From Pseudomonadota bacterium (GTDB lineage Bacteria; Pseudomonadota; Alphaproteobacteria; Rickettsiales; UBA3002), in NCBI GenBank assembly GCA_048498255.1, contig JBEHYI010000001.1, forward strand, positions 1 through 43,706: 43,706 bases of DNA, in the 5' to 3' direction. Of this stretch, positions 225-5,949 are shown one piece after another. The translations under genes were made by a program, and so were the position numbers. Each line of letters starts with the position of its first letter. Within the stretch, counting starts at the first letter, position 1. Below the pieces are notes generated by a model, which saw only the letters and a program-made list of their open reading frames with translations, did not search any database and was not told where the DNA came from.

Positions 225-1385
225 ATGACCACCATTTCCGATAGTATGCTCGACAGTATGACGGCACAAGTCGCCGACATGCGCGCGCAGATGAAGGCGG
301 AGCTCGATGTCATGATCGGCAAACCGGCGGATTGGGAGGCACAGAAAGAATCTTCGGGCGATTCCCTCGCGGATCAAGGCGCTATCAATGCCCTGCAAAG
401 CGAAGCCGATACGATGGTCGAAAAAGCAAACAAGCTGCTGGGCGATGTGCAGCATATGCTCGACAATGCGGGCCAGTTGGATGAAGAAAGCCGCGGTGAG
501 CTCGATCATGTGCGCGACCAGGCCAACCAGATGAAAGACGCGGCGGAGCAAACGCAAAAAGAAATTGCCAATGCCCTGCCGGATGCGAACGGAAAAAAAC
601 GGCTCCCGGCCTCGAAGGTAAGCGCGCTAATCAACACGATGCATCAAATCAATATCGAGGCGGGTGACGAGATTACCGAGCTTGATAAAGTAGCCGTGCA
701 TGTGCAGGCGCATAAGGCCGAAATGGCAGAAAAGGCGGCGGCTGCGAGCCATGTAAAACCCACAGCCGTGGCCAGCAAATCAACGAAAAAACCATGCGCA
801 GGCAAGGTGAAAGCTGCCTGCACCGCGCCGGGTTTGGTGAAGACTGCGCAGCATGACACGCATACGGGGTGGATGGGCGCCACCTGGCACGGCATCGAAG
901 AAACTGCAGAAAAAACGAAGCATTATTTTGGCGATGTGACGCATAGCGTGATCGCAGGCATCAGCGGTTTGGCGGCGGAAGCGGCCGATTGGGAGCCCGT
1001 GCGCGAGACGCGCGCCTTCCTTGCCCATCCGATCACCTCGACCAAAGTTGCCGTCGCGAAAATGGCCAAAATTGTGGGCGATACGGCGGATGCGGTGGTG
1101 GTGAAGCCGGTCAAAAATTTTGTGCATGCGGGGCATCAAATGCTGAACCATGCAGGCGATAAAGTGCATCAAGTCATCGAGCGATTCACCCATGGTCCGG
1201 CGAAAAAAACCGCCATCGCGCATGTGCAGGCCAAGGGCAGCGCGCATGCAAGTGTGGCGCATGCCCATCAGCAAGTGAAGGGCATGCATTGGCCCAGCTT
1301 AACTCTTGAAGATGCTTGGGAATTTGTCTCGCAGAGTCTCCCGGGGCATCACCCATCCGTTAACCCCTTAATTCATGATCATTAA
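225..1385 (+). CDS. Hypothetical protein, 386 aa. Acidic/Gln-rich helical N-terminal part, His/Ala/Lys-rich C-terminal half, no signal peptide or TM segment seen
   Basis: Longest ORF in the region, with GC-rich third codon positions like the housekeeping genes. The competing ORFs 120-557(-) and 780-1289(-) are antisense shadows. No family recognised. The SD is weak, so the exact start is uncertain. Confidence 0.6.
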   Translation: MTTISDSMLDSMTAQVADMRAQMKAELDVMIGKPADWEAQKESSGDSLADQGAINALQSEADTMVEKANKLLGDVQHMLDNAGQLDEESRGELDHVRDQANQMKDAAEQTQKEIANALPDANGKKRLPASKVSALINTMHQINIEAGDEITELDKVAVHVQAHKAEMAEKAAAASHVKPTAVASKSTKKPCAGKVKAACTAPGLVKTAQHDTHTGWMGATWHGIEETAEKTKHYFGDVTHSVIAGISGLAAEAADWEPVRETRAFLAHPITSTKVAVAKMAKIVGDTADAVVVKPVKNFVHAGHQMLNHAGDKVHQVIERFTHGPAKKTAIAHVQAKGSAHASVAHAHQQVKGMHWPSLTLEDAWEFVSQSLPGHHPSVNPLIHDH

Positions 1386-1397
1386 CGGTATGTTAAC
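1382..1397 (+). promoter_or_regulatory. Perfect CtrA-box consensus TTAA-N7-TTAAC
   Basis: ttaa cggtatg ttaac lies 53 nt upstream of ATG 1450. A one-mismatch second site, TTGA-N7-TTAAC, is at 1424-1439. Confidence 0.55.
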
Positions 1398-1449
1398 GTA
1401 AATCTGATAAGCTTAGATAAAATTTGATGCAATTTTAACCAAAAGGCGT

Positions 1450-4024: not shown

Positions 4025-4040
4025 TTAACGCTTCCTTAAC
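4025..4040 (+). promoter_or_regulatory. Perfect CtrA-box consensus TTAA-N7-TTAAC
   Basis: ttaa cgcttcc ttaac lies 95 nt upstream of ATG 4135, in the 120-bp gap between the two paralogs. Confidence 0.55.
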
Positions 4041-4134
4041 CTTTTCCTGCTAATGCTGAAGAGGATGGAGAAGATTTTAGCTAATTTCATTCAATGCGTG
4101 AAATCGGGCGAAAAATCGGGTAAGATGAAGTGAA

Positions 4135-5949
4135 ATGGGTGAAGGTATAAACGAGAAAATGGCCCAAGCCGATATTATCGATGCGAAGCCCGGCGCACTT
4201 GGCGCTGCTGTCGGCGCGCTTGGATTTGCCGCTCAATCGGATCTTTCGCAAACGGTTGATCAGGAACGCGCAGAATCCGCGCTGGCGGCGGCGAATCTCG
4301 CCGTATCCCACATGCCGCCTTCCGCCCATAAAGATGCGTTGCTGCAGCGTTTAGGTGCCTTGAGCAATGCCTCCTCGACCGCGCATATTCTGATGGTTGC
4401 GCAGTCGGTGAGCGCTGAAGCTGCACCAACCACCAGCGATACCAATAAAACTGCCGTCGAGCATGCGTTACTCGCAAGTGAGCTCGAAGTGCAATGGATG
4501 CATAACAGGTTTGAGCTCAACACCGCCAAAGGCCGCTACGCCTTCGCCCATGCATTGGTGGGCCCGAATCAGCCGAAGGAAGTGGTGGAGGCGGTGGCCT
4601 ACGACATCGAGCACGACCCGGAAATGCGCGCGAGTGCGAAGTCCTGGAACGATGCGTCGCCGGAAGAGCGCAAAGTGATGAAGGGGAACCGCGCGGCCAA
4701 TGCGAAATCTGTGACTGAACTGGCGCAGGAACTTTCGCAGGATGAAAGCCTGAGCGCCGAACAGCGCAAATACTTCAAGGAATTGGCGGATGGCAATGAC
4801 CCGGCGCATGTGAAGGGCCACCGCAAAACGCTTGAGGCATTGCAGAAATATGAGCAGGACCATAATTTTGCCGAGCTGAAAAATGTCACGGATGGCATTG
4901 AGACGAAGTGGAAAAGCCGCGAGCACCAAACGGAGCGCCGCCTGAAAGCGAACGGCGACCACCATGCGCATGAACATGCGCAAGCGGCGGCCAGTGCGGA
5001 AATGGATTTGGATGCGCTGGTGAGCCAGCCGCAAACGGCCGTGCGGCAAATGGCGCGTAGCCAAACCGGCACGAAGGCTGAGAAAGCGGCGGCCATCTCC
5101 AACTGGAGCAGCATGACCAAAGGCGCAGATGCCGACCGCACGGAAGCGATCGTGCAGCAATATAACGCTACCCACAAAGGCGAAAAAATCGACCAAGACG
5201 CGCTGCATAAAAATGCCGCCGCTTATGTCTCGTCGCACAAGGCGCTGGGTGAGCATGCAAAAATTGTTTCGCCGAAAGAAATGATCGGCACGGCCATGGA
5301 AGCCGGTGCGCAAGCCATGCTTAGCGGCAATACCAAAGCGGCTTACGATAACGCGCGCAAAGTGTATGATATCATGGCGGCGGCGGGTTCGGGCTATACG
5401 AAAGACCAAGCGGATGTTGCGCTCGCCATTCTGAATCGCGGTGCGAAGAATGCGGACGATGCTTACCACAACCGCATGGGCGGGGTGATGGGGCGTGACG
5501 AGCTGGTTGCGGTAATGAGTAACCCTACCATGCGCAAAGAACTCATTCGCCTCACCCTGAAAGACATCGAAGAATCGACGCCGGGCAACCTGAAATGGGG
5601 CGCAGATTTGCAAGCGCGCACCTATGCCGCAACGGTGTTGAGTGCCGATGCGGTGACGGGTAAAACGACGAACAAAGTGATCGATGCGGCGAAAGACATG
5701 ATGGCCGATCGGGATGATTTTGGCCATAATTTGAAGCGCTCACTTAATACCATGAACGCGGACCAAAACCTCAAAAAGCTCTACGATACGGACCACGACG
5801 GCAAGGTTGAACTCTGGGAAATCCGCGCGATTATGGAGAAAAACGGCGTGACCCATGCGCCGACCAATATCGCGGGCTATACTGCAGTCGCACAAGGGCC
5901 AGGCCATGCGCCGTCGATTGCTAAACCGGCCGCCGCCCGCACCCATTGA
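4135..5949 (+). CDS. Hypothetical 604-aa protein with a canonical C-terminal EF-hand Ca-binding loop. Paralog of the 1450-4014 product
   Basis: DTDHDGKVELWE (nt 5785-5820) fits the 12-residue EF-hand loop: D1, D3, D5, G6, hydrophobic at 8, E12. Alternative start ATG 4159 (MAQADI). The 419-aa antisense ORF 4468-5727 is judged a shadow. Confidence 0.75.
   Translation: MGEGINEKMAQADIIDAKPGALGAAVGALGFAAQSDLSQTVDQERAESALAAANLAVSHMPPSAHKDALLQRLGALSNASSTAHILMVAQSVSAEAAPTTSDTNKTAVEHALLASELEVQWMHNRFELNTAKGRYAFAHALVGPNQPKEVVEAVAYDIEHDPEMRASAKSWNDASPEERKVMKGNRAANAKSVTELAQELSQDESLSAEQRKYFKELADGNDPAHVKGHRKTLEALQKYEQDHNFAELKNVTDGIETKWKSREHQTERRLKANGDHHAHEHAQAAASAEMDLDALVSQPQTAVRQMARSQTGTKAEKAAAISNWSSMTKGADADRTEAIVQQYNATHKGEKIDQDALHKNAAAYVSSHKALGEHAKIVSPKEMIGTAMEAGAQAMLSGNTKAAYDNARKVYDIMAAAGSGYTKDQADVALAILNRGAKNADDAYHNRMGGVMGRDELVAVMSNPTMRKELIRLTLKDIEESTPGNLKWGADLQARTYAATVLSADAVTGKTTNKVIDAAKDMMADRDDFGHNLKRSLNTMNADQNLKKLYDTDHDGKVELWEIRAIMEKNGVTHAPTNIAGYTAVAQGPGHAPSIAKPAAARTH

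Follow-up and report, generated by a model that had tools for sequence, protein, structure and literature searches.

A variable gene position upstream of queH in a UBA3002 alphaproteobacterium: long helical proteins with EF-hand-like loops and putative CtrA and PHO-box-like promoters

Three consecutive open reading frames (ORFs), here called p1, p2 and p3, are located directly upstream of queH near the start of contig JBEHYI010000001.1 (assembly GCA_048498255.1), a stretch of 43,706 nt from a member of UBA3002 (Rickettsiales) that was analysed over its full length and is referred to below as the window. Comparison with related genomes indicates that the three genes occupy a position which is fixed in the chromosome and very variable in content, that p2 and p3 are old tandem paralogs, and that the promoters are of two putative types, one with a CtrA box before p2 and p3 and one with a PHO-box-like repeat before p1. 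An earlier reading of the same DNA, made from the sequence only, had described a same-strand cluster of three large ORFans of 386, 854 and 604 aa with gaps of 64 nt (p1-p2) and 120 nt (p2-p3), and these coordinates were reproduced exactly (Table 1). It had also called the codon usage native, which holds with a small correction: the G+C content at third codon positions (GC3) is 0.63-0.65 in p1-p3 versus 0.39-0.43 at second positions (GC2), slightly under the GC3 of 0.68-0.78 in the housekeeping neighbours, at a base composition of 55% GC. Since GC3 exceeds GC2, p1-p3 are genuine coding sequences, of roughly native composition. The products are hydrophilic, with 16-17% Ala, a pI of ~6.1, 6.7%, 3.7% and 4.1% His in p1, p2 and p3, and 2, 1 and 0 Cys residues in the same order. 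Neither a transmembrane (TM) segment nor a signal peptide was found in any of the three, as had been reported earlier, the maximum 19-residue Kyte-Doolittle mean (KD19) being <=1.3 throughout (highest value, 1.30).

The conserved neighbour queH was used to fetch related loci, of which the best 80 from species-representative genomes were included (among them L011 from UBA3002 and L056 from UBA6187; loci are cited by such numbers where needed). The window genome itself has no entry in the species-representative set, in which the best QueH match was 89%. In approximately 25 loci, with QueH at least 78% identical, the slot directly upstream of queH and on the same strand is occupied by one to three large ORFs of 400-1900 aa, and most of these slot proteins show no BLAST similarity to each other. 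Relatives of p1 were present in the same position in L001-L004 only, at 18-25% identity, and relatives of p3 were found at the slot in L002-L005, L008-L010 and L012; the genomic contexts of three database relatives of p3 (P0020, P0021 and P0022) show the same slot. The set of genes varies from locus to locus, being p1 and p3, p2 and p3, another protein and p3, or p3 alone.

The closest relative, L086, has the same synteny as the window, with slot genes followed by QueH, small minus-strand ORFs, MaeB, MutS, L32, PlsX and FabH. It contains a full-length ortholog of p2 (L086:7344-9866), which aligns with p2 end to end (841 vs 854 aa, 32% identity, E=2e-102) and is followed by the p3 ortholog, P0022; p1 is absent. 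Compared with the window, identities in L086 are 90% for QueH, 92% for MaeB, 93% for PlsX, 82% for MutS and 83% for FabH, whereas p3 can be aligned over only 92 residues, which are 42% identical. Similarly, against L001 and L002 the neighbours are 75-92% identical versus 25% for p1 and 31% for p3. By these comparisons the slot is hypervariable, fixed in position and far faster-evolving than its neighbours. ORFans in the strict sense the three proteins are not: besides the p2 ortholog, p3 has five database relatives in addition to those derived from the loci, and p1 has four relatives.

Two further observations concern the slot and its surroundings. In a pair of strain-level contigs the slot protein of 782 aa (L081, 7427-9775) and its counterpart of 779 aa (L082, 2927-5266) differ by one non-synonymous change and a three-codon indel, and MaeB, the p3-like gene and QueH are identical (four genes compared, ~7 kb of coding sequence); the differences in this pair are too few for a ratio of nonsynonymous to synonymous substitution rates. 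A few kilobases upstream of the slot, several relatives carry genes with prepilin-type N-terminal methylation motifs, i.e., type IV pilin- or pseudopilin-like (L002, 828-1775 and 4328-4867; L015, 2845-3672).

Searches for known families were largely negative. No Pfam or NCBIfam family reached its curated cut-off for p1, p2 or p3, nothing was found in PHROGs or PADLOC at E<=0.01, and sequence and profile searches of the PDB gave nothing for p1 or p2; the p3-family profile gave only weak, sub-threshold EF-hand matches in the PDB (E=0.025-0.3). At the 90% cluster level p1, p2 and p3 are each singletons, all from one NCBI contig. An exhaustive phmmer search with p3 against 1.84 billion representative proteins yielded five relatives only (P0019-P0023). 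In a word-indexed search of 5.8 billion proteins, restricted to the best 8000 candidates and probably saturated by low-complexity, Ala-rich sequences, the query alone was found among the matches listed for p2 and for the p3-family and p1-family profiles. Scans of Joint Genome Institute metagenomes with A5 and with p2, and tblastn searches of plasmids with p1, p2 and p3, gave no match. Several weak resemblances were rejected. Matches to SNAP-25-like proteins (E ~0.1-0.5) were dismissed as coiled-coil noise, as was the NCBIfam match of p1 to NheA (E=0.061, 12.2 bits vs a cut-off of 500). Membership in the ClyA, Nhe and Hbl tripartite alpha-pore-forming toxins is not supported either, the hydrophobic head stretch being absent (maximum KD19 1.30) and p2 and p3 being double the size of that family.

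The AlphaFold2 model of p3, based on an alignment of six sequences, is all-alpha with 28 helices, a predicted local distance difference test (pLDDT) score of 62.8 and a predicted template modelling score of 0.37; pLDDT falls under 50 at residues 483-531 and 574-604, the segments flanking the EF-hand loop. The single-sequence model of p2 (pLDDT 51.7) also consists of helices only, and its repeat region reaches 70-86. In both models the N-termini are predicted to be disordered. Foldseek comparison with the PDB gave no match at E<1 for the p3 model and none at E<0.1 for the p2 model, which is a weak negative given the low to moderate confidence of the models. The earlier proposal that p1-p3 represent an undescribed, lineage-restricted set of long helical proteins is borne out by these searches: sensitive methods placed them in no known family, and slot genes are present in approximately 25 metagenome-assembled genomes (MAGs). 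The sole known domain in p1-p3 appears to be the EF-hand.

The relationship between p2 and p3 is old but can be traced. The direct evidence is weak, with BLASTP aligning p2 48-188 and p3 58-182 at E=0.006 and a Smith-Waterman comparison of the N-terminal regions giving z=4.3 (1/500 shuffles reached the observed score), and a hidden Markov model (HMM) of the p3 N-terminal family alone did not detect p2. Profile-profile alignment with hhalign of A6, a two-sequence p2 profile (p2 and its L086 ortholog), against A1, a seven-sequence p3 profile, matched the N-terminal modules over 171 columns with E=2.6e-5 and a probability of 75%. Moreover, p2, p3 and the L002 ortholog have the motif DP[DE]-x11-[ST]PE[EQ]R[RK] in matching places, and ORF translations totalling 656,602 residues contain its hexapeptide core only five times. 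On this evidence, the patches of similarity pointed out in the sequence-only reading, the N-terminal one and 'ASPEER', can be taken as true homology. The promoters of p2 and p3 have the same architecture, as described below, which argues for a duplication of the whole unit and gives independent support from the DNA; p2 and p3 are best regarded as old tandem paralogs whose promoter was duplicated along with them. As L086 also carries p2 and p3 in tandem, the tandem is older than the split of the window genome from L086. No relation of p1 to p2 or p3 was found (hhalign of p1 vs the p3 family, probability 0.1%).

The two paralogs share a layout consisting of a disordered N-terminus, a helical module of ~190 aa, a fast-changing helical middle, one EF-hand loop and a tail. 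In p2 the middle includes tandem protein repeats, three here vs two in the L086 ortholog, and Tandem Repeats Finder did not find a DNA tandem repeat beneath them. The tail is short, rich in Pro, Ala, Thr and Gln, and basic although p2 and p3 are acidic overall, its last 25 residues having a net charge of +2 and no Asp or Glu. Across the tabulated p2/p3-slot proteins the tail is net positive in ~19/31 and net zero or positive in 24/31.

A C-terminal module with an EF-hand-type loop common to p2 and p3 had also been claimed, and here the two proteins have to be separated. The p3 loop, DTDHDGKVELWE, fits the canonical 12-residue form D-x-[DNS]-x-[DNS]-G-x-[ILV]-x-x-x-[DE]. Pfam EF-hand_6 matches p3 548-571 with E=5.6e-4 and 19.9 bits vs a cut-off of 25, and a clade-specific EF-hand HMM, whose training set was 23 loops of other slot proteins, matches p3 with E=1.5e-7. 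In p2 the same HMM matches at ~789-814 (protein E=5e-4, domain score 12 bits), positions 1, 3 and 5 of the loop (NANKNEKLDEKE) are Asn and position 6 is Glu, and the L086 ortholog is likewise degenerate; we regard the p2 loop as a probable decayed copy of an EF-hand. Pairwise comparison of the two C-terminal modules was not significant (z=0.4). Of 28 slot proteins, 11 have a match to Pfam EF-hand families (PF13405 / PF00036) at E<=1e-3, the best with E=4.8e-13 and all of them close to the C-terminus, and no other Pfam family was found; one of the 11, L005_b, is above the gathering cut-off (26.8 vs 25 bits). The number of loops is one in p3, and not the pair that makes up the four-helix unit of EF-hand proteins, and it ranges from 0 to 3 in its slot relatives.

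The sequence-only reading had linked the cluster to CtrA, and this link is strengthened by comparison. Perfect TTAA-N7-TTAA boxes occur only twice in the window (0.39 expected), once before p2 and once before p3. A conserved unit precedes both genes, consisting of TTAACGnnnnnTTAAC, ~10-12 nt, a GCATAAT-like -10 and then TAGATAAAAGTTGAG.TAATTT, the copy before p3 having a 9-nt insertion. The leader element downstream of box 1 aligns with TAGATAAAAGTTGAG.TAATTT in ~10 orthologous loci; with up to three mismatches it has 61 matches in 1.2 Mb of related sequence, none of which adjoins a CtrA box outside this locus. Of the 17 closest loci examined, 15 have a perfect CtrA box upstream of a slot gene, at distances between 59 and 218 nt but mostly of 110-145 nt. 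L023, L025, L027, L081, L084 and L086 have one as well, and such boxes are present even where no protein similarity could be detected. As in the window, the box overlaps the stop codon of an upstream p1-like ORF in L001-L003 and L007, and in L004 it begins 2 nt past the ORF end. In L086 the box of the p2 ortholog is again 68 nt before the ATG and the arrangement at the p3 ortholog is as in the window. p2 and p3 each have a CtrA-box promoter of their own, from which we infer expression as part of the CtrA programme; in most alphaproteobacteria this programme belongs to the motile or dispersal phase.

The promoter of p1 is of another type. Matches to YYGTMAYNNNNYYGTMAY were found twice in the window vs 0.05 expected, at 155-172 before p1 and at 40374-40391. 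The motif has the form YYGTMAY-N4-YYGTMAY followed 7-9 nt on by GCTAnAnT, and across the loci 36 matches were found vs ~2.5 estimated by chance, nearly all of them intergenic. Most matches lie 20-60 nt, and the farthest 254 nt, before the ATG of an ORFan gene; among these genes are p1 orthologs, many of the p3 slot, small ORFans beside queH and a conserved ORFan of 655 aa. The PHO box has been described as two 11-nt direct repeats with the 7-nt core CTGTCAT, which replace the -35 and lie ~10 nt upstream of the -10 (PMC4415409). The p1 promoter conforms to this description, and p2 and p3 in the window are without such a box. No classical pst or pho gene was found in 1.3 Mb of sampled sequence, all box-bearing genes being ORFans. 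The regulator of p1 could be PhoB or another protein of the OmpR/PhoB family, and p1 would thus be under the control of a PhoB-like regulator.

The same box was observed at other genes. The second site in the window, TCGTAATAAAACTGTCAT, is followed by GCTATAAG and lies upstream of two adjacent ORFans (40374-41800 in all; one at 40540-41268, the other ending at 41800) with Gly-rich, 'glycine-zipper' hydrophobic stretches. The conserved ORFan of ~655 aa (MTKPTRQEIYIFDHPES...), which is near the slot in L081 (13331-15298), L084 (7977-9950) and L006 (9887-11857, minus strand), has the PHO-like box ~35-55 nt before its start codon and may belong to the same regulon.

Based on these results, the trio is not a fixed three-gene module, since p1 is unrelated to p2 and p3, has the other promoter type and is absent from L086; the dedicated module proposed earlier is further weakened by the varying gene sets of the relatives. 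The suggested tandem duplication of p2 and p3 stands, and both have CtrA boxes; the suggested shared regulation does not extend to p1. Between the roles considered at that time (envelope, cytoskeletal, polar or secreted effector) the sequence does not decide; neither the window nor the flanks of the related loci have secretion-system or cytoskeletal genes near the slot.

Table 1. Positions of the genes, protein segments and putative promoter elements at the slot (nucleotides numbered in the window)
Feature	Residues (aa)	Nucleotides	Strand	Description or basis
PHO-box-like direct repeat CCGTCACGAAACTGTCAT (CCGTCAC-GAAA-CTGTCAT)		155..172	+	p1 promoter
-10-like element GCTAGAAT		181-188	+	8 nt after p1 direct repeat
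p1		225..1385	+	ORF, 386 aa; Ala- and His-rich
CtrA box 1 TTAACGGTATGTTAA		1382..1396	+	overlaps p1 stop codon, 68 nt before p2 ATG
Promoter-core/leader element TTAGATAAAATTTGATGCAATTTT		1413..1436	+	downstream of CtrA box 1
p2		1450..4014	+	ORF, 854 aa; all-alpha (predicted)
p2 N-terminal module	5-193	1462-2028	+	profile-profile match to p3
p2 tandem repeats, three of ~71 aa	455-669	2812-3456	+	protein repeats
p2 degenerate EF-hand-like loop	796-807	3835-3870	+	clade-specific HMM
CtrA box 2 TTAACGCTTCCTTAA		4025..4039	+	110 nt before p3 ATG
-10-like element GCTAATGC		4049-4056	+	after CtrA box 2
Diverged leader-element copy		4073-4088	+	after CtrA box 2, before p3
p3		4135..5949	+	ORF, 604 aa; all-alpha (predicted)
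p3 N-terminal module	11-187	4165-4695	+	profile-profile match to p2
p3 conserved central-C region	~380-490		+	relatives
p3 canonical EF-hand loop	551-562	5785-5820	+	motif, HMM

The window is otherwise an ordinary chromosome segment encoding QueH, MaeB, MutS, PlsX, FabH, CorA, Amt, LipA, a LysR regulator and SpoT, together with two soluble chemoreceptors of the PAS-methyl-accepting chemotaxis protein (PAS-MCP) type and with histidine kinases among the neighbours; no mobile-element gene was found in its 43.7 kb. The gene for the second PAS-MCP (33508-36000) has a GC3 of 0.48 vs ~0.7 elsewhere, the region of 34-36 kb falls to 47% GC, and this DNA may have been acquired recently. Directly downstream of queH a minus-strand ORFan of 123 aa (6667-7038) has a GC3 of only 0.42 and no BLAST relative in the loci; a small minus-strand ORFan is found in the same position in L081, L084 and L086, and in L005 and L025 small ORFans with a PHO-like promoter are located downstream of queH. 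A fast-evolving ORFan of 390 aa without a Pfam match lies between MutS and PlsX (13960-15132), with 26-28% identity to its counterparts in L001, L006, L015 and L081 as compared with 60-88% for its neighbours. At the extreme end of the contig, window positions 1-90 contain a perfect 11-nt inverted repeat, GCGGGGATGAC (6-16) and GTCATCCCCGC (56-66), followed by GCGAAGGCGGGGATCC; it has the appearance of a repetitive extragenic palindrome and is present as a single copy in the window.

The clade that shares the slot is probably one of uncultivated, small-genome alphaproteobacteria, i.e., basal free-living Rickettsiales in the GTDB sense near UBA3002. UBA3002 was reported as a basal, 'ancient-stage' family of the Rickettsiales that is free-living, flagellated and chemotactic (bioRxiv 10.1101/2023.01.31.526412), and UBA6187 as a MAG of the Athabascaceae (PMC9352585). 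Genome sizes of 2.1-2.35 Mb and a GC content of 55% agree with this picture. A Micavibrio-like predator was considered as the source and rejected, as Micavibrio was not represented among the 80 best queH loci and the literature places UBA3002 and UBA6187 in the basal Rickettsiales. The explanation that we prefer, although tentatively and with somewhat less than even confidence, is that p2 and p3, possibly together with p1, are Ca-binding proteins, either exported or located at the surface, which are independent of Sec and controlled by response regulators. They would be exported by rvh type IV, flagellar type III or type I secretion, p2 and p3 would fold or act upon binding extracellular Ca2+, and the external target could be a partner organism, prey, a grazer or a surface; p1 would be an unrelated partner gene with a PHO-box-like response-regulator promoter. 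Interaction with such a target would then account for how far the proteins have diverged and for their changing copy number. That they are exported, bind Ca2+ and act on an external target is what we infer from sequence features.

Known secretion substrates resemble the slot proteins in part. Like effectors of the rvh / VirB-D4 type IV secretion system (T4SS) of Rickettsiales, p2 and p3 are large, lineage-specific proteins without a Sec signal that evolve fast, vary in copy number and have a hydrophilic, net-positive C-terminal tail, the last being a weak and unspecific likeness. However, no T4SS gene was found in the available sequence (the window and the related loci), the Ank, LRR and TPR domains are missing from p1-p3, and neither in sequence nor in fold are p1-p3 similar to verified effectors. 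It was reported that free-living Mitibacteraceae and Athabascaceae carry the rvh T4SS without assignable effectors (Schön et al., PMC9352585), and the present lineage appears to be a deep relative of the Rickettsiales as well. With RTX substrates of type I secretion systems (T1SS) p2 and p3 have in common a variable N-terminal body, Ca-binding motifs near the C-terminus, a short uncleaved tail, few Cys residues and no N-terminal signal peptide. They differ in using an EF-hand loop (1-3 in relatives) and not GGxGxDxUx nonapeptide repeats; HemolysinCabind or another repeat family matched 0/28 slot proteins, p2 and p3 included, the window and the flanks of the related loci have no adjacent genes for an ATP-binding cassette protein, a membrane fusion protein or TolC, and p1-p3 are only mildly acidic. 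In regulation there is a parallel with Legionella and Coxiella, in which PmrA-type elements mark effector genes (Dot/Icm regulons). There, as here, a response-regulator tandem repeat just upstream of the -10 marks many unrelated ORFans, but the motif in the present loci is CTGTCAT-N4-CTGTCAT-like, as in the PHO box, its regulator is putative, the bacterial class is another one and no Dot/Icm system is implied.

Several points weigh against export. The basic, low-complexity tail is specific to no secretion signal, the pI of ~6.1 is less acidic than is typical of T1SS substrates and no RTX repeats are present, and secretion-system genes were found neither in the window nor in the flanks of the related loci. 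The EF-hand of p3 is a single loop under the Pfam cut-off and that of p2 is degenerate, and confidence in the structural models is low to moderate (pLDDT 62.8 and 51.7). Rapid divergence can also result from relaxed constraint on disordered or scaffold proteins. Moreover, the genes driven by CtrA also include many for cytoplasmic proteins of the cell cycle, of polarity and of the flagellum.

The main rival takes up these last points. According to it, p2 and p3 (and p1, if it belongs with them) are CtrA-controlled proteins inside the cell, similar to scaffold, polarity or cytoskeletal proteins, which would organise the pole, the flagellum, the pili or the division site, and their divergence would be due to low sequence constraint and not to an arms race. 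We consider this doubtful, though it survives better than any other alternative. It would account for the conserved CtrA boxes, since the CtrA targets of Caulobacter include many cytoplasmic proteins that serve polarity, the flagellum or division, and for the predicted all-alpha structure with long helices and repeats; an export signal is absent and secretion genes are not adjacent, and Pro/Ala/Thr-rich linkers, as in L002, are also known from polar scaffold proteins. PodJ and TipN of Caulobacter, in particular, share with p2 and p3 a full TTAA-N7-TTAA box and long helical, poorly conserved sequences. On the other hand, an identity of 25-32% against 82-93% in the neighbours would be extreme for structural partners of a conserved machinery, and the slot gains and loses genes. 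In bacteria, canonical DxDxDG EF-hands more commonly serve as structural Ca sites in extracytoplasmic proteins. Unlike PodJ, TipN and SpmX, p1-p3 have no TM anchor or peptidoglycan-binding domain; unlike PodJ and TipN, p2 and p3 also lack TPR domains, have C-terminal EF-hands, diverge far faster and vary in gene count. The Foldseek comparison of the p2 and p3 models with the PDB gave no likeness to a known cytoskeletal or scaffold fold.

Less probable still, and in our view unlikely, is a phosphate-starvation (PhoB) response, in which p1-p3 would be acidic, His-rich, Ca-binding proteins and CtrA would add only a cell-cycle gating; they might, for example, act at the envelope as a buffer or scavenger of cations or phosphate, or take part in remodelling the cell. 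The p1 promoter cannot be distinguished from the PHO box consensus and has a -10-like element 8 nt downstream, the same box precedes p2- or p3-slot genes in L005, L007, L008, L012, L015-L017, L023, L025, L081, L084 and L086, and the His contents given above, together with the EF-hands, would suit such a role. However, the genes that bear the box in the sampled DNA include none of the classical Pho genes, p2 and p3 of the window have no PHO-like box of their own, no enzyme-like or binding fold can be recognised, and the extreme divergence would be left unexplained. The notion that the ORFs are decaying, non-functional or mis-annotated and without a selected product, to which their singleton status at the 90% cluster level, the near absence of database relatives and the low structure confidence might lend some credit, is close to refuted by open frames of 386-854 codons that persist at 55% GC, by a p2 ortholog of like size that aligns end to end, by modules, EF-hand loops and promoters kept across ~25 genomes, and by a GC3 above GC2 as in real genes.

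If the preferred explanation of exported, Ca-binding proteins is narrowed further, p2 and p3 and those ORFans of the clade with a CtrA or PHO-like box would be substrates of a Sec-independent exporter, either an ancestral rvh T4SS or the flagellar apparatus. We regard this narrower proposal as improbable at present. If it were true, effector-like proteins would have existed before host association became obligate. CtrA would activate their expression in the motile phase, a PhoB-like regulator would activate it too, and the C-terminal EF-hand would be an element for Ca2+-triggered folding outside the cell. Being hypervariable, positionally fixed, free of signals and equipped with conserved response-regulator promoters, the genes of this locus form a concrete candidate set for the effectors of the rvh T4SS in free-living, deep-branching Rickettsiales, a question left by an earlier study (PMC9352585). 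More candidates could be listed genome-wide by means of the two promoter motifs (CtrA box plus leader, PHO-like box plus -10). If, on the other hand, the proteins are intracellular, they would be new components of the CtrA programme in a lineage near the base of the Rickettsiales. In either case, much of the fast-evolving and unannotated gene content of such MAGs would be organised under a few recognisable regulators.

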